DNA of 64,000 nucleotides from Escherichia phage REP2. The stretch lies in the sequence record OQ174501.1; one strand, 5' to 3'. The notes beneath the pieces are model-generated. The model saw only the letters and a program-made list of their open reading frames with translations, made no database searches and had not been told where the DNA came from. Shown piece after piece: positions 2,070 to 57,484 of the stretch (within the stretch, counting starts at the first letter, position 1; every line of letters starts with the position of its first letter). A program made the position numbers and the translations under genes.

Positions 2070-2220
2070 GTCCATTCATAGGTATTACAAGCGCTGCATT
2101 AGTATCTGGTGGCATTTTACTGGCGGGTTTAGGTGTTGTTCCTGCCGTAGCAGGAGGTCTTCTTGCGTTCGGAATTCAACGTGTTATCATGATAGTTATC
2201 ACAGTCATGCAGTAATTTTA

Positions 2221-2251
2221 GGGAGAGCCTCGGCTCTCCCTTTTTTATTTT
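2221..2251 (+). terminator. Rho-independent terminator after gene 52
   Basis: GGGAGAGCC-TCG-GCTCTCCC hairpin followed by TTTTTTTATTTT. Confidence 0.8.
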
Positions 2252-2270
2252 AAAATTTTTTCACAAAACG

Positions 2271-2300
2271 GTTTACAACCAAAGCATACTGTGGTACTAT
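2271..2300 (+). promoter_or_regulatory. T4 early-type sigma70 promoter
   Basis: GTTTAC (2271-2276), 18-bp spacer, TGGTACTAT extended -10 (2295-2300). Confidence 0.7.
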
Positions 2301-2349
2301 ACAACTATCAAATAAATGAACTGAAACAAACAACCCGGAGATACAAAAA

Positions 2350-18865: not shown

Positions 18866-18893
18866 CTAATTAATTGGGGACCCTAGAGGTCCC
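18866..18893 (+). terminator. Rho-independent terminator after gene 32
   Basis: GGGGACC-CTAGA-GGTCCCC followed by TTTTTTATTT. Confidence 0.85.
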
Positions 18894-18924
18894 CTTTTTT
18901 ATTTCAAAAATTTTTCATAAAACG

Positions 18925-18954
18925 GTTTACATCCTTGTCCTTCCATGGTACTAT
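18925..18954 (+). promoter_or_regulatory. Early-type promoter
   Basis: GTTTAC (18925-18930), 18-bp spacer, TGGTACTAT; followed by a perfect 8-bp-stem hairpin TATCAGCA-ATAC-TGCTGATA (18960-18979) at the predicted 5' end of the transcript. Confidence 0.65.
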
Positions 18955-18997
18955 ACAACTATCAGCAATACTGCTGATAATTAAAGAGGAAAATAAT

Positions 18998-19640: not shown

Positions 19641-19670
19641 TTTACAACAGGGTAGTAGTGTGATACTATT
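19641..19670 (+). promoter_or_regulatory. Early-type promoter
   Basis: GTTTAC (19641-19646), TGATACTAT -10; inverted repeat GGGTAGTAG / CTATTACCC (19651-19675) embraces the -10. Confidence 0.6.
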
Positions 19671-22774: not shown

Positions 22775-23054
22775 ATACAAATCCGACTTTGATGTTAATA
22801 TTCACCGCGGTACATTTTGGGGAAATTACGTCGGTAAAGATGCTGGCAGCCGAGAGGCTGCCATTGAATTATTCAAAAAAGATTTTATACGTCGAATTAA
22901 ATCCGGAGAAATAACTAAAGCACATTTAGAGCCTTTACGTGGAATGAGGCTAGGATGCACATGTAAACCAAAGCCGTGTCATGGTGATATAATAGCTCAT
23001 ATAGTTAACCGATTGTTTAAAGACGATTTTCAAGTTGAGGACTTATGCAATTAA
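22728..23054 (+). CDS. Hypothetical early protein (nrdA.1 position)
   Basis: 108-aa ORF with conserved Cys/His ([12 protein letters not shown]). Confidence 0.55.
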
Positions 23055-24478
23055 TTAATGTTATCAAAAGTAGTGGTGTTTCTCAGAGCTTTGACCCGCA
23101 AAAAATTATTAAAGTTTTATCTTGGGCAGCTGAAGGAACATCTGTAGATCCTTATGAATTATATGAAAATATTAAATCATATCTCCGTGATGGAATGACC
23201 ACTGATGACATTCAGACTATTGTCATTAAGGCTGCTGCGAATTCTATTTCAGTTGAAGAGCCTGATTATCAATACGTAGCTGCACGCTGTTTAATGTTTG
23301 CTCTTCGTAAGCATGTTTACGGGCAATATGAACCACGTTCATTTATTGACCATATTTCTTACTGTGTAAATGAAGGTAAATATGACCCCGAATTATTGTC
23401 AAAATATTCAGCAGAAGAAATTACATTTTTAGAATCAAAAATTAAGCACGAACGGGATATGGAATTTACTTATTCCGGGGCGATGCAATTAAAAGAAAAA
23501 TATCTAGTTAAAGATAAAACCACTGGTCAAATTTATGAAACTCCACAGTTTGCATTTATGACTATTGGAATGGCATTGCATCAAGATGAACCTGTTGATA
23601 GATTAAAACATGTTATTCGTTTTTATGAAGCAGTATCTACTCGACAGATTTCACTGCCAACTCCTATTATGGCTGGTTGCCGTACTCCGACTCGACAGTT
23701 CAGTTCATGCGTTGTTATTGAGGCAGGAGATTCATTGAAGTCTATCAATAAGGCTTCCGCTTCGATTGTTGAATATATCTCTAAACGCGCTGGAATTGGT
23801 ATTAACGTTGGTATGATTCGTGCTGAAGGTTCTAAGATTGGCATGGGTGAAGTACGCCATACTGGTGTTATTCCTTTTTGGAAACATTTTCAGACTGCAG
23901 TTAAATCATGTTCACAGGGTGGAATTCGTGGCGGCGCTGCTACTGCTTATTATCCTATTTGGCATTTGGAAGTTGAAAATCTTCTTGTTTTGAAAAATAA
24001 CAAAGGCGTAGAAGAAAACCGCATTCGTCATATGGATTATGGTGTTCAACTGAATGATTTGATGATGGAACGTTTTGGAAAGAACGATTACATTACTTTG
24101 TTCAGTCCCCATGAAATGGGCGGAGAGCTTTATTATTCTTATTTTAAAGACCAAGACCGTTTCCGTGAATTGTATGAAGCCGCAGAAAAAGACCCTAATA
24201 TTCGTAAAAAGCGTATTAAAGCTCGTGAACTATTTGAATTGCTCATGACTGAACGCTCAGGAACAGCAAGGATTTATGTACAGTTCATTGATAATACGAA
24301 TAACTATACTCCATTTATTCGTGAAAAGGCACCTATTCGTCAGAGTAACTTGTGCTGTGAAATTGCTATTCCAACAAATGACGTGAATAGCCAACAAACC
24401 CGTTTAATCAAAATTAAGAAGTCGGATGTAGCTAAGTTTTATGAAGCTAATCCTGGCGGTATAATTCAAAGCAAATAA
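23045..24478 (+). CDS. nrdA: Ribonucleotide reductase large subunit, N-terminal piece (NrdA-a)
   Basis: 477 aa; ATP-cone and catalytic barrel up to the SNLCCEIAIPTNDVN motif (N437/C439/E441 equivalents), then 29 unrelated codons and a stop. Confidence 0.9.
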   Translation: MQLINVIKSSGVSQSFDPQKIIKVLSWAAEGTSVDPYELYENIKSYLRDGMTTDDIQTIVIKAAANSISVEEPDYQYVAARCLMFALRKHVYGQYEPRSFIDHISYCVNEGKYDPELLSKYSAEEITFLESKIKHERDMEFTYSGAMQLKEKYLVKDKTTGQIYETPQFAFMTIGMALHQDEPVDRLKHVIRFYEAVSTRQISLPTPIMAGCRTPTRQFSSCVVIEAGDSLKSINKASASIVEYISKRAGIGINVGMIRAEGSKIGMGEVRHTGVIPFWKHFQTAVKSCSQGGIRGGAATAYYPIWHLEVENLLVLKNNKGVEENRIRHMDYGVQLNDLMMERFGKNDYITLFSPHEMGGELYYSYFKDQDRFRELYEAAEKDPNIRKKRIKARELFELLMTERSGTARIYVQFIDNTNNYTPFIREKAPIRQSNLCCEIAIPTNDVNSQQTRLIKIKKSDVAKFYEANPGGIIQSK

Positions 24479-25292
24479 AGTACACAGACCGTTAATAAAT
24501 AATCCATAACAAGAGGAAAAGTTATGGATTATTCTAAAATTTACAATAACCTTATTTCTAAAGCTAAGAACAGAAAATTAGATTGCTATACCGAATCACA
24601 CCATATTATACCTCTGTGTATTGGTGGTTCTGATACAAAGGAAAACCTGGTAGATTTGACACCCGAAGAGCATTACATAGCTCATCAATTATTAGTAAAG
24701 ATATATCCAGATAATCATAAATTGGTATTTGCCGCTAATATGATGTGTGTTTATTCTGAAGATAATATTGAACGAAAGAACACCAATAAACGCCATGGGT
24801 GGCTTAGAAGAAAATTGGCTATTTCTGTATCTGAAAATAATAAAGGCAAACCAGCTTGGAACAAAGGTATTCCGGTAACTGACGAGCATAGAGAAAAACT
24901 TCAAACAACTTGGGTATTTACTTTCCCGGACGGTCATGAAGAAATCCATAAAGGCCTAAGAGAATTTTGCGAACTACATTCACTCAATGCTTCGGCAATG
25001 TCGGCCGTATGCAAAGGCAAAAGGTCTCAACATAAAGGCTTTAAGTGTCGAAAGCTTGATAATATCTCTGAAAACGATAATCAAGAATACGTCAGTAAAC
25101 CTCATCCAAAGGGATTAAAACCCCATAACTTAATTGCTGTAAAAATAAACGGTATAGAATATCAATCAATACATCGAGCATCTAAAGCTCTAGGAATATC
25201 TCGAAAAAAGGTAGAAGAATTAAATGAATATTGATTATGAATTTGTAGATGAATTTTACGAAGATGATGAGTATACAACAATACAAGTTATT
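24389..25292 (+). mobile_element. 904-bp insert in nrdA carrying a free-standing HNH homing-endonuclease gene
   Basis: NrdA homology breaks after codon 448 and resumes 23 codons into the downstream ORF; boundaries are approximate. Confidence 0.6.
24524..25234 (+). CDS. HNH-family homing endonuclease (MobE / I-HmuI-like)
   Basis: 236 aa; HNH motif ESHHIIPLCIGGSDTKENLVDLTPEEHYIAH, NUMOD3-like KGKPAWNKGIPVTDEHREKL, C-terminal HTH-like INGIEYQSIHRASKALGISRKKV; SD GAGGA upstream. Confidence 0.85.
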   Translation: MDYSKIYNNLISKAKNRKLDCYTESHHIIPLCIGGSDTKENLVDLTPEEHYIAHQLLVKIYPDNHKLVFAANMMCVYSEDNIERKNTNKRHGWLRRKLAISVSENNKGKPAWNKGIPVTDEHREKLQTTWVFTFPDGHEEIHKGLREFCELHSLNASAMSAVCKGKRSQHKGFKCRKLDNISENDNQEYVSKPHPKGLKPHNLIAVKINGIEYQSIHRASKALGISRKKVEELNEY

Positions 25293-26213
25293 GAAAACAA
25301 AGGTGAAGTGGGCCTCTGTACTCTCTCTGCATTCGTACTGGATAATTTTGACTGGCAAGACCAAGATAAAATTAATGAATTGGCAGAAGTCCAGGTTCGT
25401 GCTCTTGATAATCTTTTGGATTACCAAGGATATCCAGTTCCTGAAGCAGAAAAAGCTAAAAAGCGTCGTAACCTCGGTGTAGGTGTTACTAACTATGCAG
25501 CTTGGTTGGCAAGTAACTTTGCTTCTTATGAAGATGCTAACGATTTAACACATGAACTATTTGAGAGATTACAGTATGGACTCATTAAAGCATCCATTAA
25601 ACTCGCCAAAGAAAAAGGACCTTGTGAATATTATTCAGACACTCGTTGGTCTCGAGGCGAATTACCTATCGACTGGTACAATAAAAAGATTGACCAAATC
25701 GCAGCTCCAAAATACGTTTGTGACTGGTCGTCGCTGCGGGAAGACCTTAAGCTCTTTGGCATCCGTAATAGCACATTATCAGCACTTATGCCATGTGAGT
25801 CATCTTCCCAAGTTTCTAACAGTACAAACGGTATCGAGCCTCCACGTGGACCAGTCTCTGTTAAAGAATCAAAAGAGGGCTCCTTTAATCAAGTCGTGCC
25901 CAATATTGAGCATAACATAGACCTTTATGATTATACATGGAAATTAGCTAAGAAAGGTAATAAACCTTATCTTACGCAGGTAGCTATTATGCTGAAATGG
26001 GTTTGTCAATCAGCTTCGGCGAATACATACTATGACCCCCAAATCTTCCCTAAAGGCAAGGTTCCAATGTCAATAATGATTGATGACCTTTTGTATTTCT
26101 GGTATTTTGGCGGAAAAAATTTCTATTATCATAATACCCGTGACGGTTCTGGTACTGATGATTATGAAATAGAAACTCCAAAAGCTGAAGATTGTTCATC
26201 CTGTAAATTATGA
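25224..26213 (+). CDS. nrdA: Ribonucleotide reductase large subunit, C-terminal piece (NrdA-b)
   Basis: 329 aa; after a 23-aa leader, matches class Ia NrdA from ENKGEVGLCTLSAF (C462 equivalent) to the C-terminal CSSC pair; ATG overlaps the HNH ORF 3' end. Confidence 0.9.
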   Translation: MNIDYEFVDEFYEDDEYTTIQVIENKGEVGLCTLSAFVLDNFDWQDQDKINELAEVQVRALDNLLDYQGYPVPEAEKAKKRRNLGVGVTNYAAWLASNFASYEDANDLTHELFERLQYGLIKASIKLAKEKGPCEYYSDTRWSRGELPIDWYNKKIDQIAAPKYVCDWSSLREDLKLFGIRNSTLSALMPCESSSQVSNSTNGIEPPRGPVSVKESKEGSFNQVVPNIEHNIDLYDYTWKLAKKGNKPYLTQVAIMLKWVCQSASANTYYDPQIFPKGKVPMSIMIDDLLYFWYFGGKNFYYHNTRDGSGTDDYEIETPKAEDCSSCKL

Positions 26214-27470: not shown

Positions 27471-29058
<1,588 letters not shown>

Positions 29059-29061
29059 GCT

Positions 29062-29091
29062 GTTTACAAGTCCCTCGTGTTGTGTTATAAT
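29062..29091 (+). promoter_or_regulatory. Early-type promoter upstream of alc with embedded anti-SD arm
   Basis: GTTTAC (29062-29067), 18-bp spacer, TATAAT (29086-29091); CCTCGTGTT (29073-29081) is complementary to AACATGAGG (29106-29114) overlapping the SD. Confidence 0.6.
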
Positions 29092-29122
29092 AATCTTACT
29101 GACATAACATGAGGACTTTATA

Positions 29123-29626
29123 ATGGATTTGCAGCTTATTACTACTGAGATGGTCGTTGAAGCATACGGTGATACTACAGATGGGATTTCTGTATTCAAA
29201 GGAAATCGTCGAGTTGGATATATCACCGATCTTAAGAAAGATTTAGCTAAGCAAGTCAAGCGGAAAACTACCATTAAAGAATATCGAAATCGTCGTCTTG
29301 AGCAAGCCCGCGATATGCTTCCTGATGCGGTTGAAGAGATGAAAGTCTTTTTAGAAAATCAACTCGCTAAGTATGAGTGCGAAGTGTTCATTAATCAGAC
29401 TCAGCCCAATGTTCATATCAATAGCTGTAAATGCTATATCATCGTTAATCCTTTGACTGGAAAGCATCGTCTTGGAATTAGTAATCCAAATCGTAGTGCA
29501 TCGGATATGGCAGAAGATGTTGAGGCATGCTTTAAAATTTCTAAATCTCCGGCTGAACATCATATTTTAATTAACGGTCTTTCTCAAGACGATATTGTAG
29601 AGGTTATTAAAACTTTATGCATGTAA
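29123..29626 (+). CDS. alc: Alc, host transcription-elongation inhibitor
   Basis: 167 aa, same length as T4 Alc; synteny after rnlA. Confidence 0.8.
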   Translation: MDLQLITTEMVVEAYGDTTDGISVFKGNRRVGYITDLKKDLAKQVKRKTTIKEYRNRRLEQARDMLPDAVEEMKVFLENQLAKYECEVFINQTQPNVHINSCKCYIIVNPLTGKHRLGISNPNRSASDMAEDVEACFKISKSPAEHHILINGLSQDDIVEVIKTLCM

Positions 29627-32381: not shown

Positions 32382-32420
32382 GTTTACTTTACGGTAGAGT
32401 TGTGATATTATAGCTCTACC
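32382..32420 (+). promoter_or_regulatory. Early-type promoter with inverted repeat embracing the -10
   Basis: GTTTAC (32382-32387); GGTAGAG (32393-32399) ... TGTGATATTATAG ... CTCTACC (32414-32420). Confidence 0.6.
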
Positions 32421-35871: not shown

Positions 35872-35900
35872 GAGGACTCCTTCGGGAGTCCTTTTTTATT
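35872..35900 (+). terminator. Rho-independent terminator
   Basis: GAGGACTCC-TTCG-GGAGTCCT followed by TTTTTTATTTT. Confidence 0.85.
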
Positions 35901-35922
35901 TTCCAAAGACTGCATAAAGTTG

Positions 35923-35972
35923 TTTACAGTATGGTTCCTTTGTGATAGTATTATCTTACACAAACAAAGGAG
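35923..35972 (+). promoter_or_regulatory. Early-type promoter with inverted repeat linking promoter spacer to SD
   Basis: GTTTAC (35923-35928), TGATAGTAT -10; CCTTTGT (35937-35943) pairs with ACAAAGG (35964-35970) overlapping SD AAGGAG. Confidence 0.6.
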
Positions 35973-35978
35973 AATAAA

Positions 35979-36311
35979 ATGAAAACGATTAATCTGAACG
36001 CTGCAGTTAAAACTAAATGCTTCAATGGTAAATATGATGAAACTATGTGGTTCTTAATGGCAGTTGAAGGTGATATTATTGAAGTAGAAACAACAGAAGG
36101 TATGGGAACAGATTTCACCTTTACAATTCAAGTTCATAATTTCTTTACTGGTTGGATTTATGAATTGAATACAGTAATCGTTGGAAAAATTGAACAAAAT
36201 GAATTAGGTGAATGGTATTATGTTACAGCTCGCCAACGTGCCGAACGCTTAATTGAGAAGATGAAAAAAGTTGGTAAACTTGATATGCAGCATTGGAAAG
36301 TAGTAAAATAA
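35979..36311 (+). CDS. Hypothetical early protein (30.8 position)
   Basis: 110-aa ORF; AAGGAGAATAAAATG start context. Confidence 0.6.
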   Translation: MKTINLNAAVKTKCFNGKYDETMWFLMAVEGDIIEVETTEGMGTDFTFTIQVHNFFTGWIYELNTVIVGKIEQNELGEWYYVTARQRAERLIEKMKKVGKLDMQHWKVVK

Positions 36312-36313
36312 TT

Positions 36314-36353
36314 GTTTACTTTGGTACAGGATATGATATTATATACCTGTACC
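36314..36353 (+). promoter_or_regulatory. Early-type promoter with perfect 8-bp inverted repeat embracing the -10
   Basis: GTTTAC (36314-36319); GGTACAGG (36323-36330) ... ATATGATATTATATA ... CCTGTACC (36346-36353). Confidence 0.6.
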
Positions 36354-40692: not shown

Positions 40693-40720
40693 TAAAGGCC
40701 TTCGGGCCTTTAATTTTATA
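40693..40720 (+). terminator. Hairpin / putative terminator
   Basis: AAAGGCC-TTCG-GGCCTTT followed by AATTTTAT (weak U-tract). Confidence 0.5.
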
Positions 40721-40747
40721 AATAGAATAAACACTAGAGAGGATAAC

Positions 40748-42841
40748 ATGGAACTTATTACAGAATTATTTGACGAAGATACTACTCTTCCGATTACAAA
40801 CTTAAATCCAAAGAAGAAAATACCACAAATTTTTTCAGTTCATGTTGATGATGCAATTGAACAACCAGGCTTTCGTTTATGTACCTATACATCTGGAGGT
40901 GATACTAATCGTGATTTAAAGATGGGCGATAAAATGATGCACATTGTTCCTTTTACATTAACTGCTAAAGGTTCAATTGCTAAATTAAAAGGTCTTGGTC
41001 CAAGCCCGATTAATTATATCAATTCAGTTTTTACTGTTGCAATGCAAACAATGCGTCAATATAAAATTGATGCCTGTATGCTTCGTATTCTTAAGTCTAA
41101 AACCGCCGGTCAAGCTCGACAAATTCAACTTATTGCTGATAGACTCATCCGCAGTCGTTCAGGTGGCAGATACGTCCTTCTTAAGGAACTCTGGGATTAC
41201 GATAAAAAGTATGCATATATTCTTATACATCGTAAAAATGTATCACTAGAAGACATTCCAGGAGTTCCAGAAATTAGCACCGAGCTTTTTACTAAAGTTG
41301 AATCGAAGGTCGGTGATGTTTATATCAATAAAGATACTGGAGCTCAAGTAACCAAAAATGAGGCAATTGCTGCATCTATTGCACAAGAAAATGATAAACG
41401 TTCTGACCAAGCCGTAATCGTTAAAGTTAAAATTTCCCGTAGAGCAATTGCACAAAGTCAGTCATTGGAATCTTCTAGATTTGAAAGTGAATTATTCCAG
41501 AAGTATGAATCTACAGCAGCTAATTTTAATAAACCAGCTACTGCACCTTTAATTCCCGAAGCAGAAGAAATGAAAATTGGAATTAATTCATTAGCTTCTA
41601 AAACAAAGGCAGCAAAAATTATTGCTGAAGGAACGGCAGATGAACTTCACTATGATTATAAATTCTTTCCAATGAGTCAAGTCGGTGAAGTTTCAGAAAA
41701 AATTAAAGAAGTAATTTTTAATGCAATTAAAAATGAACCAACTACTTCAATAAAATGTTTAGAGAAATACGCAGCAGCTGTAAATCAATTCTTTGAAGAT
41801 TATAAAGATAAATGGCTTGCTAATCATAATAAAAATCGTAAAGGACAACCAGATGAAGTCTGGGAAGAAATAACTAAAAATTCCTGGAACGCAGCAAAAA
41901 CTAAATTCCTCAAACGAATGATTTACAGTTTTTCTGGAATTGGTGCTGGTCCAATGATTGATATTACTATTGCCCGCGATGGTTCTAAATATACTCCATC
42001 ACAAAAGCGTGGCATTAGAGAATATTGCGGTTCAGGATATACTGACATCAATAATCTTCTTTTAGGTCGTTACAATCCAGAACGATACGATGTAATGAGT
42101 GAAAAAGAAATTGAATCTGCTATAAATAACTTAGATTCAGCTTTTGAAAATGGTGACCGTATACCAGAAGGCATTACAGTTTATCGTGCTCAAAGTATGA
42201 CTGCTCCTATATATGAAGCGTTAGTTAAAAATAAAGTGTTCTACTTCAGAAATTTTGTATCTACTTCTTTAACTCCTATCATTTTTGGACGTTTTGGAAT
42301 CACACATGCTGGTATTGGTCTTTTAGAACCAGAAGCTCGTAACGAATTAACAGTTGATAAAAATGAAGAAGGAATAACTATTAATCCAAACGAAATAAGA
42401 GCGTATAAAGAAAATCCTGAATATGTTAAAGTTCAAATAGGATGGGCAATTGATGGAGCTCATAAAGTTAATGTTGTATATCCAGGAAGTCTCGGAATAG
42501 CAACAGAAGCTGAAGTTATTCTACCACGCGGATTGATGGTCAAGGTTAATAAAATAACTGATGCTTCTAATAATGACGGAACAACATCTAATAATACAAA
42601 ACTCATTCAAGCTGAAGTTATGACCACGGAAGAGCTCACCGAATCGGTAATCTATGATGGAGACCATTTAATGGAAACTGGTGAATTGGTTGCAATGACA
42701 GGTGATATTGAAATAGAAGACAGAGTTGACTTTGCATCATTTGTTTCATCAAATATTAAACAGAAAGTAGAATCATCTCTTGGAATTATTGCGTCTTGCA
42801 TAGATATTACAAACATGCCTTACAAGTTCGTTCAAGGATAA
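40748..42841 (+). CDS. alt: Alt ADP-ribosyltransferase (virion-injected)
   Basis: 697 aa; N-terminus MELITELFDEDTTLPITNL...; R-S-E ART motifs (YRAQ, FVSTSL, EAEVILPRG); matches T4 Alt. Confidence 0.9.
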   Translation: MELITELFDEDTTLPITNLNPKKKIPQIFSVHVDDAIEQPGFRLCTYTSGGDTNRDLKMGDKMMHIVPFTLTAKGSIAKLKGLGPSPINYINSVFTVAMQTMRQYKIDACMLRILKSKTAGQARQIQLIADRLIRSRSGGRYVLLKELWDYDKKYAYILIHRKNVSLEDIPGVPEISTELFTKVESKVGDVYINKDTGAQVTKNEAIAASIAQENDKRSDQAVIVKVKISRRAIAQSQSLESSRFESELFQKYESTAANFNKPATAPLIPEAEEMKIGINSLASKTKAAKIIAEGTADELHYDYKFFPMSQVGEVSEKIKEVIFNAIKNEPTTSIKCLEKYAAAVNQFFEDYKDKWLANHNKNRKGQPDEVWEEITKNSWNAAKTKFLKRMIYSFSGIGAGPMIDITIARDGSKYTPSQKRGIREYCGSGYTDINNLLLGRYNPERYDVMSEKEIESAINNLDSAFENGDRIPEGITVYRAQSMTAPIYEALVKNKVFYFRNFVSTSLTPIIFGRFGITHAGIGLLEPEARNELTVDKNEEGITINPNEIRAYKENPEYVKVQIGWAIDGAHKVNVVYPGSLGIATEAEVILPRGLMVKVNKITDASNNDGTTSNNTKLIQAEVMTTEELTESVIYDGDHLMETGELVAMTGDIEIEDRVDFASFVSSNIKQKVESSLGIIASCIDITNMPYKFVQG

Positions 42842-42844
42842 ATC

Positions 42845-44902
42845 ATGGAACTTATTACAGAATTATTTGACGGCGCCGAAGCGCCGGTTGTTAACTTAAA
42901 TCCTAAGCATAAAATACCTCAAATTTTTGCTATTCAAGCCGGTGAAGAAAGCGTTCTTCCTGGATTTCGATTTTGTACATACACCTCTGGCGGTGATACG
43001 AATAAAAACGTTAAGCCAGGCGACAAAATGATGCATATCGTAATGATAGGTGTTAATGAGAAACTATCATTAGTTAAGCTTAAAAACTTGGGTGGAAATC
43101 CAATTGGCGTCATTAATGCTGTTTTTGATACTGCTCTTCAAACAATGAAGCAGTATAAAATTGATGCATGCCTATTCCGCGTACTAAAAAGTAAAACAAA
43201 TGGCGCAGCTCGTCAAATGCAAGTTATTGCTGACCGTTTAGTACGTACTAAAGGAGCAGGTCGATATGTTCTTTTAAAGGAAATCTGGGATTATGATAAA
43301 AAGTACGCATATATTATGGTTTACCGTAAAAATGCCAATTTAGAAGACATTCCAGGTGTACCTCCTATTTCAACCGAGTTATTCACAAAAGTTGAATCAA
43401 AGGTTGGTGATGTTTATGTAGACGTTAAAACAGGTAATGCTGTTCCTAAAGCTGTTGCTGTTGCTGCTTCTATTGCTTTAGAAAATGATAAGCGCACGGA
43501 TCAAGCTGTTATTCAGAAAACTAAAATTAGTCGTCGATTAGCAGCACAAGCTCAATATTCTACTGTTGATGCTTCACTTCAGGGTGATAGCTTCGCTGCT
43601 AAGAAATATCAAGAGTTTGAATCTAAAGTTCCGGTATATAAAGCAGAAGGACCAATGAACTCTGGCGTTATTCAGATTGGTTCAAACTTTAGCAAAGGAG
43701 CTATCGGTGGTATGAGAAGTGCTTCTCGTTTTAAATCTAGTGATTATGAACTCGAAAGCTTCCGAAATCATATTGCATTGGCTCATGCACGTTTACGTGA
43801 TCCATCTATCAAGTTACAGAGCGATATAACATATCAAGGTTCTCAAGAATATTTAAAGAATAAAGAATTCTTTGATTATAAAACTGATAAAATTTTAAGC
43901 GATCTTGCTGATATTAATATTTCTAATAGCTTTGATGTTATTAAGAAAATTATCAATGATTTAGTTAAAGGTTCTAAAGCTACACCAGATGAAAAGACAG
44001 CTATTATTCAATTTGTAATGAATGGAATTTATAAATTAATTGATGAATCTACTGCTCAGGCATATGAATATGCAAGCACTGAAGTAACTCCAAAAGGATT
44101 AACTCAGGCTGAATCTGATGTAATTGAAGATTATTGCGCAGATTCATATGTTGAAATGAACTCGTTCCTTCTAGGTAAACCTGATTCTACACGTGAAGAA
44201 TATATGGAACGTGCTATTAAGCACATTGAGACGTTGGATTCTGCATTTGCTAAAGGTTCAGTTCTTCCTCCGGGAACTACACTTTACCGTGGCCAAGAAG
44301 TTACTTTTAAAACTTTACGTCATAATATAGAAAATAAAATGTTCTATTTCAAGAACTTTGTATCTACTTCACTCAAGCCAAATATCTTCGGTGAATATGG
44401 TAAAAATTATATGGCTTTAGATGACGCTGGAACAGTATTTTCTGGTGAAGGAGAAGGTTCAGTTGATGCTGAAGATTTAATGCATATGGGTAGTCATTCT
44501 ACATATGCGAATGAAGACGCTGAAACTAATGTAGGTATGGTAATTAAAGGAGCTGAACGAGTTAAAGTTATCGTTCCAGGTCATTTATCAGGATTTCCAT
44601 CCGAAGCTGAAGTTATTTTGCCGCGTGGAATTTTACTGAAGATTAATAAAGTAAGTACGTACATGATGAAAGAAACCGCTTATAATAAGTATCTAATTGA
44701 AGGCACGATTGTTCCTCCTTCTGAACAATTAGAGGAATCGGTATATGATGGTGACCATTTGATGGAAACCGGAGAAGTTCGTCCAATGGCTGGATTTAAT
44801 CAATTCCTTGTAGAAGAATCAAAAGAAGAGGAAAGCGAAGTTTCTCAAATCTTAGCTTCTTTGGTTAACATCAACGGAATGTCTAAAAAGTTCAAAATGT
44901 AG
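42845..44902 (+). CDS. Alt-like ADP-ribosyltransferase paralog
   Basis: 685 aa; same N-terminal ~200 aa scaffold (MELITELFDGAEAPVVNL...), diverged middle, retained YRGQ / FVSTSL / EAEVILPRG motifs. Confidence 0.85.
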   Translation: MELITELFDGAEAPVVNLNPKHKIPQIFAIQAGEESVLPGFRFCTYTSGGDTNKNVKPGDKMMHIVMIGVNEKLSLVKLKNLGGNPIGVINAVFDTALQTMKQYKIDACLFRVLKSKTNGAARQMQVIADRLVRTKGAGRYVLLKEIWDYDKKYAYIMVYRKNANLEDIPGVPPISTELFTKVESKVGDVYVDVKTGNAVPKAVAVAASIALENDKRTDQAVIQKTKISRRLAAQAQYSTVDASLQGDSFAAKKYQEFESKVPVYKAEGPMNSGVIQIGSNFSKGAIGGMRSASRFKSSDYELESFRNHIALAHARLRDPSIKLQSDITYQGSQEYLKNKEFFDYKTDKILSDLADINISNSFDVIKKIINDLVKGSKATPDEKTAIIQFVMNGIYKLIDESTAQAYEYASTEVTPKGLTQAESDVIEDYCADSYVEMNSFLLGKPDSTREEYMERAIKHIETLDSAFAKGSVLPPGTTLYRGQEVTFKTLRHNIENKMFYFKNFVSTSLKPNIFGEYGKNYMALDDAGTVFSGEGEGSVDAEDLMHMGSHSTYANEDAETNVGMVIKGAERVKVIVPGHLSGFPSEAEVILPRGILLKINKVSTYMMKETAYNKYLIEGTIVPPSEQLEESVYDGDHLMETGEVRPMAGFNQFLVEESKEEESEVSQILASLVNINGMSKKFKM

Positions 44903-44931
44903 TTTACAAGTCCCTCGTGTTGTGTTATAGT
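44902..44931 (+). promoter_or_regulatory. Early-type promoter, second copy of the alc promoter-leader cassette
   Basis: GTTTACAAGTCCCTCGTGTTGTGTTATA identical to 29062-29089; ACTGACATAACATGAGGA identical to the alc leader. Confidence 0.6.
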
Positions 44932-44962
44932 AGTTTTACTGACATAACATGAGGAACACAAA

Positions 44963-45253
44963 ATGAAATCTTCTTTGCGCTTTTTAGGTCAAGAACTCGT
45001 CGTTGAGGGCGTTATTCCCGCTGATAACGCTTTCAATGAAGCAGTTTATGATGAATTTATTAAAATTTTCGGAACCGATAAAAAGTTTGGAATTTTTCCT
45101 TCTGAAAATTTTTCAAAGCCAGAACAGACTGAAAGTATTTTCCAAGGTGTAGTAACAGGTAAATTTGAGTCAGAAGCTCCGGTAAAAATTGAGGTTTATA
45201 TTGAAGAAACCTCTGTTGCTTCAGTTGCTGCTTTTATTTCATTCCGTAAATAA
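44963..45253 (+). CDS. Hypothetical protein (alt.-1 region)
   Basis: 96-aa ORF with SD GAGGA upstream. Confidence 0.55.
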   Translation: MKSSLRFLGQELVVEGVIPADNAFNEAVYDEFIKIFGTDKKFGIFPSENFSKPEQTESIFQGVVTGKFESEAPVKIEVYIEETSVASVAAFISFRK

Positions 45254-45257
45254 AAAT

Positions 45258-45282
45258 ATGGGGACCTTTCGGTCCCCATTGT
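45258..45282. terminator. Bidirectional hairpin terminator between the alt block (+) and gene 54 (-)
   Basis: TGGGGACC-TTTC-GGTCCCCA flanked by A/T runs on both sides. Confidence 0.7.
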
Positions 45283-56059: not shown

Positions 56060-57484
56060 ATGGCTTTTACAGTTGATATAACTCCTAAAACCCCAACAGG
56101 AGTTATTGATGAAACCAAGCAGTTTACTGCTGCACCCAGTGGTCAAACTGAAGGTGGAACTATTACCTATGCTTGGAGTGTAGATAATGTTCCACAGGAT
56201 GGAGCTGAAGCAACTTTTAGCTATGTACTAAAAGGACCTGCAGGTCAAAAGACTATTAAAGTAGTTGCAACAAATACAGTTCCAGAATCTGAAGCTGAAC
56301 CTGAAACAGCAGAAACTACGACAACTATCACAGTTCAAAATAAGACACAGACTACTACAATAACAGTAACTCCTGATAGTCCTTCGGAAGGAGTAATCGG
56401 AACAGCTGTTCAATTTACCGCTGCCTTAGATTCACAGCCGCCAGGTGCATCTGCTACGTATCAATGGCACGTCGACGGTTCTCCTGTGGGAGAAGCAACT
56501 GACGCTACATTTAACTATACTCCTGCCATAAGCGGAGTTAAAAAAATTAAGTGTGTAGCTCAAGTAACTGCGACAGATTATGATACAAAGACCGTTACTT
56601 CTGACGAAGTGTCGCTGACTGTTAACAAGAAAACCCAAGCGACTACTTTAGTTGTAACTCCTAATAGTCCTTCAGCTGGAGTAATTGGAACTCCAGTTCA
56701 ATTTACTGCTGCCTTAGCTTCTCAACCTGATGGAGCGTCTGCTACATATAAGTGGTATGTAGATGATTCTCAAATTGGTGGAGAAACTAACTCTACATTT
56801 AACTATACTCCAACTACAAGTGGAGTAAAAAGAATTAAATGTGTAGCGCAAGTAACTGCAGAAAATTACAATGAAAAGGAAGTTACTTCTAATGAAGTAT
56901 CATTGACAGTTAATAAGAAGACAATGAATCCACAGGTTACATTGACTCCTCCTTCTATTAACGTTCAGCAAGATGCTTCGGCTACATTTACGGCTAATGT
57001 TACTGGAGCACCTGAAGCAGCACAAATTACTTATTCATGGAAGAAAGATTCTTCTCCTGTAGAAGGGTCAACTAACGTATACACCGTTGACACCTCATCT
57101 ATTGGAAGTCAAACTATTGAAGTTACTGCTGTCGTTACAGCAACCGACTATGATAGTAAAACAGTTAAAGCAACAGGCCAAGTTCAGGTAACTGATAAAG
57201 TTGCTCCGGAACCAGAAGGTGAATTGCCTTATGTTCATCCTCTTCCACATCGTACTTCAGCTTATATCTGGTGCGGTTGGTGGGTTATGGATGAAATCCA
57301 AAAAATGACCGAAGAAGGTAAAGATTGGAAAACTGAAGATCCAGACAGTAAATACTACCTGCATCGTTACACTCTTCAGAAGATGATGAAAGACTATCCA
57401 GAAGTTGATGTTCAAGAATCACGCAATGGATACATCATTCATAAAACTGCTTTAGAAACTGGTATCATCTATACCTATCCATAA
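56060..57484 (+). CDS. hoc: Hoc, highly immunogenic outer capsid protein, with an extra Ig-like domain
   Basis: 474 aa versus 376 in T4; four Ig-like repeats plus the conserved capsid-binding C-terminus ...EGELPYVHPLPHR...TGIIYTYP. Confidence 0.9.
   Translation: MAFTVDITPKTPTGVIDETKQFTAAPSGQTEGGTITYAWSVDNVPQDGAEATFSYVLKGPAGQKTIKVVATNTVPESEAEPETAETTTTITVQNKTQTTTITVTPDSPSEGVIGTAVQFTAALDSQPPGASATYQWHVDGSPVGEATDATFNYTPAISGVKKIKCVAQVTATDYDTKTVTSDEVSLTVNKKTQATTLVVTPNSPSAGVIGTPVQFTAALASQPDGASATYKWYVDDSQIGGETNSTFNYTPTTSGVKRIKCVAQVTAENYNEKEVTSNEVSLTVNKKTMNPQVTLTPPSINVQQDASATFTANVTGAPEAAQITYSWKKDSSPVEGSTNVYTVDTSSIGSQTIEVTAVVTATDYDSKTVKATGQVQVTDKVAPEPEGELPYVHPLPHRTSAYIWCGWWVMDEIQKMTEEGKDWKTEDPDSKYYLHRYTLQKMMKDYPEVDVQESRNGYIIHKTALETGIIYTYP
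56348..56935 (+). repeat. Tandem duplication of a ~294-bp Ig-domain-coding unit in hoc
   Basis: Protein units TTITVTPDSPSEGVIGTAVQFTAALDSQPPGASATYQWHVDGS... and TTLVVTPNSPSAGVIGTPVQFTAALASQPDGASATYKWYVDDS... are highly similar. Confidence 0.8.

Follow-up and report, generated by a model that had tools for sequence, protein, structure and literature searches.

Two copies of a promoter-leader cassette in a phage genome probably restrict the translation of the genes behind them, alc and a homologue of alt.-3, to RNA started at the cassette promoter itself. Based on the sequence and its predicted folds, we consider it rather likely that each cassette is a self-insulating expression unit, in which the 17-nt spacer of a strong early promoter encodes an anti-Shine-Dalgarno (anti-SD) sequence. 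Within this explanation, we infer where transcription starts, how much read-through occurs, and how translation is affected. The cassettes were found in a 64-kb stretch of DNA (hereafter, the window), which is 100% identical to Escherichia phage REP3 (OQ174502.1), a Tequatrovirus. The + strand of the window is the direction of early transcription.

A repeat search of the window identified a cassette family of 54 nt, the two copies of which are identical at 51 of 54 positions and lie 15,840 nt apart. The repeat extends from the G of GTTTACA to the A of GAGGA, i.e., from the -35 element to the Shine-Dalgarno sequence (SD). An earlier note on this DNA described a unit of approximately 57 bp that occurs twice; the two copies were found, but the similarity spans 54 nt, not 57-61. 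The same note named two blocks as identical in both copies, and this was borne out: GTTTACAAGTCCCTCGTGTTGTGTTATA occurs exactly twice in the window (29062-29089 and 44902-44929), as does ACTGACATAACATGAGGA (29098-29115 and 44938-44955), and shuffles of the whole window contained no match to either block. The window also contains a tandem direct repeat of 288 nt in two copies that are 74% identical (56330-56905).

Repeat search and block matches placed copy 1 at 29062..29115 and copy 2 at 44902..44955, both on the + strand. Copy 1 sits in the 64-nt gap between the rnlA stop codon (TAA, 29056..29058, +; coding sequence 27934-29058), which ends 3 nt before the cassette, and the ATG of alc at 29123. 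The gene alc (29123..29626, +) encodes an inhibitor of host transcription (Pfam PF17527, E 2.5e-92). Copy 2 follows the second of two alt-like genes, the stop codon of which (TAG, 44900..44902, +) provides with its G the first base of the cassette. It precedes the alt.-3 homologue (44963..45253, +), which encodes 96 aa (DUF5498, E 3e-62). A bidirectional terminator-like hairpin (45258..45279) between alt.-3 and the convergent late gene 54 ends this early unit.

By sequence, each unit consists of an early promoter of the sigma-70/T4 type, close to consensus, and a leader. The promoter of copy 1, TTTACA-17-TATAAT with TGn, matches the consensus at 11 of 12 positions and is the best sigma-70 site of its region. 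Its -35 hexamer TTTACA (29063..29068, +) is of the T4 early type, GTTTACA, which was invariant across the genera examined. The extended -10, TGT plus TATAAT, is located at 29083..29091 (+; hexamer 29086-29091), and promoter geometry predicts transcription to start at an A 7 nt past the -10 (29098, +). The promoter of copy 2, TTTACA-17-TATAGT with TGn (44903..44931, +), matches at 10 of 12 positions, with a predicted start A at 44938 (+). The T4 early promoter consensus has been described (PMC2988021, PMC4122927), and it was given for PST/T4 phages as TTTACW-N17-TAYWAT (PMC4122927). Both copies have the features of a T4-type early promoter, namely, a -35 GTTTAC(A), a 17-bp spacer, TGn, a -10 TAnnAT, and an A/T-rich upstream region; the sequence 5' of both promoters is A-rich. 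The late-promoter consensus TATAAATA was absent from the cassette.

The earlier note also proposed that the spacer pairs with the segment containing the SD. The pairing stood, but its extent was understated: 16-17 bp form between the spacer and leader, not just the 9 bp, with one G.U, between CCTCGTGTT (29073-29081) and AACATGAGG (29106-29114). RNAfold predicted a hairpin of 22 pairs that includes these spacer-leader pairs, with energies of -22.8 kcal/mol for alc and -23.0 kcal/mol for alt.-3. The respective z-scores were -4.8 and -5.0, and none of 200 shuffles was as stable. The 5' arm comprises the spacer and part of the -10, the loop comprises the -10 and discriminator, and the 3' arm extends from approximately +1 to the SD. 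In the fold of copy 1, the 5' arm occupies 29068..29090 (+), with the anti-SD CCTC at 29073-29076, and the 3' arm, running from the initial transcribed region through the SD, occupies 29096..29118 (+). The SD, GAGGA (29111..29115, +), lies at the end of a leader of approximately 25 nt, 7 nt 5' of the ATG, and all four of its core bases are paired with the spacer in read-through RNA. In the fold of copy 2, the arms are located at 44910..44932 (+) and 44937..44957 (+), the latter including the SD GAGGA (44951-44955). The hairpin was retained with 50-300 nt of upstream context, including 141 and 300 nt.

Since the 5' arm lies between the -35 and -10, it is absent from RNA started at the cassette promoter. 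RNA folded from the predicted +1 was nearly unstructured (-3 to -5 kcal/mol, with positive z-scores). Read-through RNA left the alc SD unpaired with a predicted probability of 0.02, compared with 0.89 for own-promoter RNA. Averaged over a wide stretch of sequence, this probability discriminated poorly, as the difference is obscured by weak alternative pairs that form in the short transcript; opening energies were used instead. Opening the SD core of alc was predicted to require 9.7 kcal/mol in read-through RNA versus 0.5 kcal/mol in own-promoter RNA; the corresponding values for alt.-3 were 11.3 and 1.2 kcal/mol. The accessibility of the alc SD did not change for any start from 29094 to 29102. 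The comparison of read-through and promoter-proximal folds suggested by the earlier note yielded, therefore, a strong hairpin in the former and nearly unstructured RNA in the latter, and these predictions agree with its claims that read-through RNA can sequester the SD and that transcripts from the cassette promoter lack the 5' arm and leave the SD free.

When the window was scanned for T4-type early promoters, both cassettes stood out clearly from the other matches in promoter-leader pairing. Among nine promoter/SD/ORF cassettes on the + strand, they also had the SD that was most strongly occluded in read-through RNA relative to own-promoter RNA. The cassette at 35923 ranked third (7.3 vs 0.1 kcal/mol), and the remainder differed by 3.6 kcal/mol or less. 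At this third early promoter (TTTACAGTATGGTTCCTTTGTGATAGTAT; 35923-36311), the spacer TTCCTTTG pairs with CAAAGGAG, the SD region of an ORF of 110 aa that belongs to the rIII-to-gene 30 region. Given this site, SD-sequestering promoter spacers may be present at more loci. Rfam 15 gave no match at the gathering threshold anywhere in the window, and a known RNA family was rejected for the cassette on this ground.

With a 76-nt cassette query, 499 phage records gave 997 matches, two for each genome. These phages were all T4-like and included T4 itself, in which both copies, before alc and before alt.-3, were read directly. We then collected the regions upstream of alc from 14 further lineages. 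The same architecture was present before alc in seven other genera (Gelderland-, Karam-, Jiaoda-, Roskilde-, Dhaka-, Marfa-, and Winklervirus), each with the invariant GTTTACA, an anti-SD (TCTCC, TCCTC, or CCTC) from base 1 or 2 of the spacer, TAnnAT, and a leader that is complementary to its own spacer and ends in the SD. While the spacer varied, all genera with this architecture kept both the -35 and the -10. The arm sequences differed by genus, e.g., TCTCCATTTGGTT/AACCAAATGGAGA versus CCTCGTGTTGTG/CATAACATGAGG, with TCCTCGTCAG/CTGATGAGGA and CCTCGTTTGTT/AACAAACGAGG as further pairs. The helices of the other genera had 12-18 pairs and short loops. Among ten sequences from the eight helix-bearing genera, the SD core was paired at four of four positions in all but one, in which three of four were paired.

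RNAalifold predicted no pairs on a MAFFT alignment of 11 cassettes. This null result arose because the register of the helix relative to the -35 shifts between genera; therefore, we used per-sequence folds and a chimera test, in which the promoter half of one genus was joined to the leader half of another. Across 10 genera, cognate halves folded with a mean energy of -19.6 kcal/mol and swapped halves with -11.6 kcal/mol, and none of 20,000 permutations was as low. Substitutions at paired positions within Tequatrovirus all kept pairing in the + strand RNA (C-G to U.G, G.U to A-U, A-U to G.U, U-A to U.G, G-C to G.U, and U.G to U-A). A metagenome scan returned 15 stretches, 11 of which were Tequatrovirus cassettes; these were informative for variants, but too few for statistics. 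Taken together, covariation, chimeras, and substitutions strongly indicate that selection maintains a structure of which the SD is part.

It may be argued that the complementarity has no function and is a by-product of a recent duplication and shared consensus sequences (TGTG before the -10 and ACAC near +1). The GUGU/ACAC of the upper stem coincides with motifs that recur in many early promoters of these phages. However, the lower stem (anti-SD, SD, and their neighbors) is not consensus, and it differs by genus yet stays complementary. A hairpin z-score of about -5 and the permutations of the chimera test also disfavor this explanation, which we regard as extremely improbable.

A constraint at the level of DNA was also considered, in which the inverted repeat around the -10 modulates promoter opening, as a cruciform or a protein-binding site. 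An inverted repeat is centered on the -10 in all lineages, and the antisense strand folds equally well or better in several genera. Nevertheless, the arms are not conserved between genera, which makes a sequence-specific binding site unlikely, and three G.T pairs in the Tequatrovirus stem weaken a DNA hairpin, while variants within the genus keep RNA-type wobbles. Moreover, the 3' arm always reaches the SD. We consider a DNA-level constraint to be very unlikely. A sequence-specific protein-binding site was rejected because the arm sequences differ between genera. Strand asymmetry gave mixed results: G.U pairs favor the sense RNA by 5-9 kcal/mol in Tequatrovirus, whereas the mismatches of Gelderlandvirus are A.C in the sense strand and the sense RNA is not favored there. 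As proof of a constraint on RNA, strand asymmetry was only partly successful.

The occlusion of the SD was not found in every lineage. In Mosigvirus (151 records), the promoter before alc is kept, but the spacer-SD pairing is absent. The alc leader of Mosigvirus, CAACAACACGAGGAG, is a near-perfect complement of the Tequatrovirus spacer, and a chimera of the two folded with -20.3 kcal/mol. This suggests that the promoter half was replaced in Mosigvirus alc. In Tegunavirus, a strong spacer-leader hairpin is present before alc; however, it stops 3-4 nt before the SD, which is not occluded. Given Tegunavirus, the hairpin may have another or an additional role. The helix is degraded before alc of Potts1, the position of the cassette is taken by an extra ORF in Gaprivervirus, and the region upstream of alc differs in the Acinetobacter and Aeromonas phages. 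In three lineages with an Alc that is 57% identical and in Aeromonas phage avDM1, the alc SD is located in a short local hairpin with its 5' arm just 3' of the -10, e.g., GGTTCCATCA-ACTAC-TGATGAGGACC.

The sequestration of ribosome-binding sites in transcripts initiated upstream has been described for T4 e, soc, 49, and I-TevI, and also for I-TevII/III, mobE, and segB (PMC3014915). In gene e, late promoters lie inside the region encoding the 5' strand (PMC3014915). A 2010 review of T4 post-transcriptional control does not mention alc, and alt.-3 is not among its examples (PMC3014915). Our literature searches, the coverage of which was incomplete, found no earlier account of a hairpin before alc or alt.-3. 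These genes are apparently a further, unlisted example of the mechanism known from other T4 genes. As in e, soc, 49, and I-TevI, which belong to the same phage family, the SD is in the read-through helix, the 5' strand overlaps the promoter, and RNA from the gene's own promoter lacks this strand. The internal promoter of those genes, in contrast, is a late promoter (TATAAATA), and their translation is delayed until late. In the alc and alt.-3 cassettes, the promoter is a sigma-70 early promoter, the spacer of which holds the anti-SD, and translation would be limited to the early period. The likeness to T4 e and soc drawn in the earlier note consequently holds for the mechanism, but not for the timing of the promoter, which is late in those genes and early here.

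A comparable arrangement is known from IS10/Tn10. Davis, Simons, and Kleckner reportedly described in 1985 how fold-back inhibition protects the element against activation by outside promoters. In IS10 RNA that reads through from outside, a segment 5' of the element's own sigma-70 start is said to pair with the transposase ribosome-binding site, whereas RNA from its own promoter lacks this segment. The logic is the same as in the present cassettes, although IS10 concerns a transposon rather than the temporal program of a phage, and there is no sequence relationship.

Promoter-early stem-loop (PeSL) cassettes of T4-type phages have also been described (PMC2839356, PMC4122927). The cassettes before alc and alt.-3 share with them an upstream stop codon in an intergenic position, an early promoter, a stem-loop, an SD, and an ATG; both types are repeated, and the stem-loop may overlap the -10. 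PeSL cassettes recombine, and the present ones may do so as well. By layout, our cassettes belong with the PeSL subclass in which the stem-loop overlaps the -10 (PMC2839356). They differ in that PeSL stem-loops were described as terminators or attenuators, with those of PST/T4 placed just 5' of the promoter, and the PeSL SD was described as a separate 3' element. The SD of alc and alt.-3 is an arm of the stem, which lacks a U-tract. Classical PeSL-like units, with the stem-loop 5' of the promoter, are found elsewhere in the window (2213-2310, 18867-18964, and 35890-35928) as repeated cassettes of a terminator hairpin, a T-run, an A/T-rich segment, and a GTTTACA promoter.

Therefore, the cassettes may be read as PeSL units in which the stem-loop attenuates or terminates incoming transcription and provides homology for recombination, with the overlap of the SD being incidental. 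Most PeSL stem-loops of RB49/phi1 lie between the -35 and -10 or overlap the -10, and one of them reduced the expression of a reporter like a strong terminator (PMC2839356). At three other early promoters of the window (36315-36343, 19641-19669, and 32383-32411), the spacer pairs just past the -10 with -16 to -19 kcal/mol without reaching the SD. These hairpins resemble the RB49/phi1 subclass that overlaps the -10 and, together with that of Tegunavirus alc, they fit the PeSL reading, as hairpins across the -10 that fall short of the SD. The unit boundaries from -35 to SD and the copy at alt.-3 also fit an exchange of cassettes. On the other hand, the stem had no U-tract in any genus, and its tails are A-rich (e.g., AAAACGAAAUG and AACCAAAAAUG). 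The terminator scan was negative at both sites. Furthermore, a mere attenuator does not need an anti-SD right after the -35 and a paired SD core in eight genera. An intrinsic terminator was rejected because of the missing U-run after the stem and the negative scan at both sites, while factor-dependent attenuation at the stem is possible. We favor SD sequestration over the PeSL reading, which is unlikely, because there is no U-tract, no terminator was detected, and the SD is always in the 3' arm. The two roles are compatible with each other.

The copy before alt.-3 is probably due to the kind of recombination in which PeSL cassettes take part. The spacers of the two loci, alc and alt.-3, match at 17 of 17 positions in Tequatrovirus, whereas those of Dhakavirus are unrelated (identity of 0.35). 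A different promoter type, with a small palindrome in the spacer, precedes alt.-3 in Gapriver-, Dhaka-, Mosig-, and Marfavirus, and a Kanagawavirus phage has yet another spacer there, which is nearer to the Marfavirus alc type. Spacer-SD pairing before alt.-3 was absent in all five other genera examined. Since the spacers are identical in Tequatrovirus only and other genera have different alt.-3 promoters, the duplication is specific to Tequatrovirus. Judging from these sequences, the alt.-3 cassette probably originated when recombination between early-promoter cassettes duplicated the alc unit from -35 to SD, and the likely direction of copying was from alc to alt.-3. The spacer identity confined to Tequatrovirus, the alt.-3 promoter types, and the Mosigvirus leader all fit copying; no event was observed.

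The promoter type found at alt.-3 of Gapriver-, Dhaka-, Mosig-, and Marfavirus and at alc of Mosigvirus is a second conserved type. Its mini-palindrome spacers include CCAC-AAGGA-GTGG, GCAC-AAGGAA-GTGC, and ACACC-AAGGAA-GGTGT, with 94% identity between the Dhaka- and Marfavirus spacers. The two alt-like genes of the window (40748-42841 and 42845-44902) are full-length, tandem ADP-ribosyltransferase genes, with repeats spaced approximately 2,094-2,103 nt apart. T4 has a single alt gene and the remnants alt.-1 and alt.-2. Due to these remnants in place of a second alt, the T4 alt.-3 cassette overlaps the end of alt.-2.

Insulation presupposes transcripts that enter the cassettes from upstream. 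The terminator scan detected no + strand terminator between the upstream genes and the cassette at either site. In T4, the mapped middle promoters PnrdA, PnrdB, PI-TevIII, P30, and P30.2 point towards these genes (PMC2988021). In the nrd region of the window, the gene for the NrdA large subunit is split into two coding sequences with a homing-endonuclease gene between them (23045-26213; REP3 annotation). The T4 late-promoter consensus TATAAATA is present at 40717..40724 (+), 24 nt 5' of the first alt-like gene; judging by this sequence, late transcripts that read through to alt.-3 are likely to start there. Time-resolved omics of T4 classified alc and alt.-3 as early RNA and early protein, rnlA as early RNA and late protein, alt as middle RNA and late protein, and alt.-1 and alt.-2 as middle RNA without a protein class (PMC9697503). 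The switch in RNA class at alt.-3 is compatible with an early promoter being active at that point, as are the protein classes with insulation at the level of translation, but neither observation is decisive.

The late protein class of both rnlA and alt in T4 is also consistent with a role of the stem in RNA processing or stability, as an RNase III site or as a stem that protects the 3' ends of the rnlA and alt messages, which are needed late. The length of the Tequatrovirus stem, approximately 22 pairs, fits such an element, whereas the stems of other genera have only 12-18 pairs and short loops. A stabilizer may sit anywhere in the gap and need not covary with the SD, and an Rfam family match was absent. 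A processing or stability element is, therefore, quite unlikely.

We return to the self-insulating cassette. Transcripts started upstream, likely at middle promoters of the nrd region and at the late-type promoter before alt, would carry both arms of the hairpin. This read-through RNA would fold with approximately -23 kcal/mol and bury the SD of alc or alt.-3, leading to poor translation. Transcripts from the cassette promoter would begin inside the loop or the 3' arm, without the 5' arm, and their ribosome-binding site would be open. The synthesis of Alc and Alt.-3 would be tied to the short period in which the early promoter fires and would be independent of the continued transcription of rnlA and alt through the middle and late periods. 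The products of these two upstream genes act late, RnlA in the attachment of tail fibers and Alt as a protein packaged into the head. The position of the upstream stop codons is a complication: those of rnlA and alt end 3 and 0 nt before the cassette, respectively, and ribosomes terminating there might fray the base of the helix.

On a broader view, the spacer anti-SD may be an old, selected, and portable switch of Tevenvirinae that permits translation only from the gene's own promoter, thereby limiting Alc to promoter-proximal immediate-early RNA and reversing the timing of e and soc. According to this history, the switch moved as a -35-to-SD cassette from alc to alt.-3 in Tequatrovirus and was lost from Mosigvirus alc when the promoter half was replaced. 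We give this wider proposal an even chance.

If confirmed, the present results would add two T4 genes, one of which, alc, is a key gene in host shutoff, to those with translation that depends on the promoter of origin, and these would be the first T4 example in which this dependence rests on an early promoter. They would also explain how early genes located 3' of rnlA and alt, which are transcribed in the middle and late periods, stay early as proteins. Promoter spacers are usually deemed neutral; the cassette suggests that they can carry regulatory RNA information. As a compact part of 54 nt, it may be of use in synthetic designs in which read-through from a neighboring gene must stay untranslated. 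The pattern across genera would represent a clear example of regulatory cassettes that are exchanged between loci.
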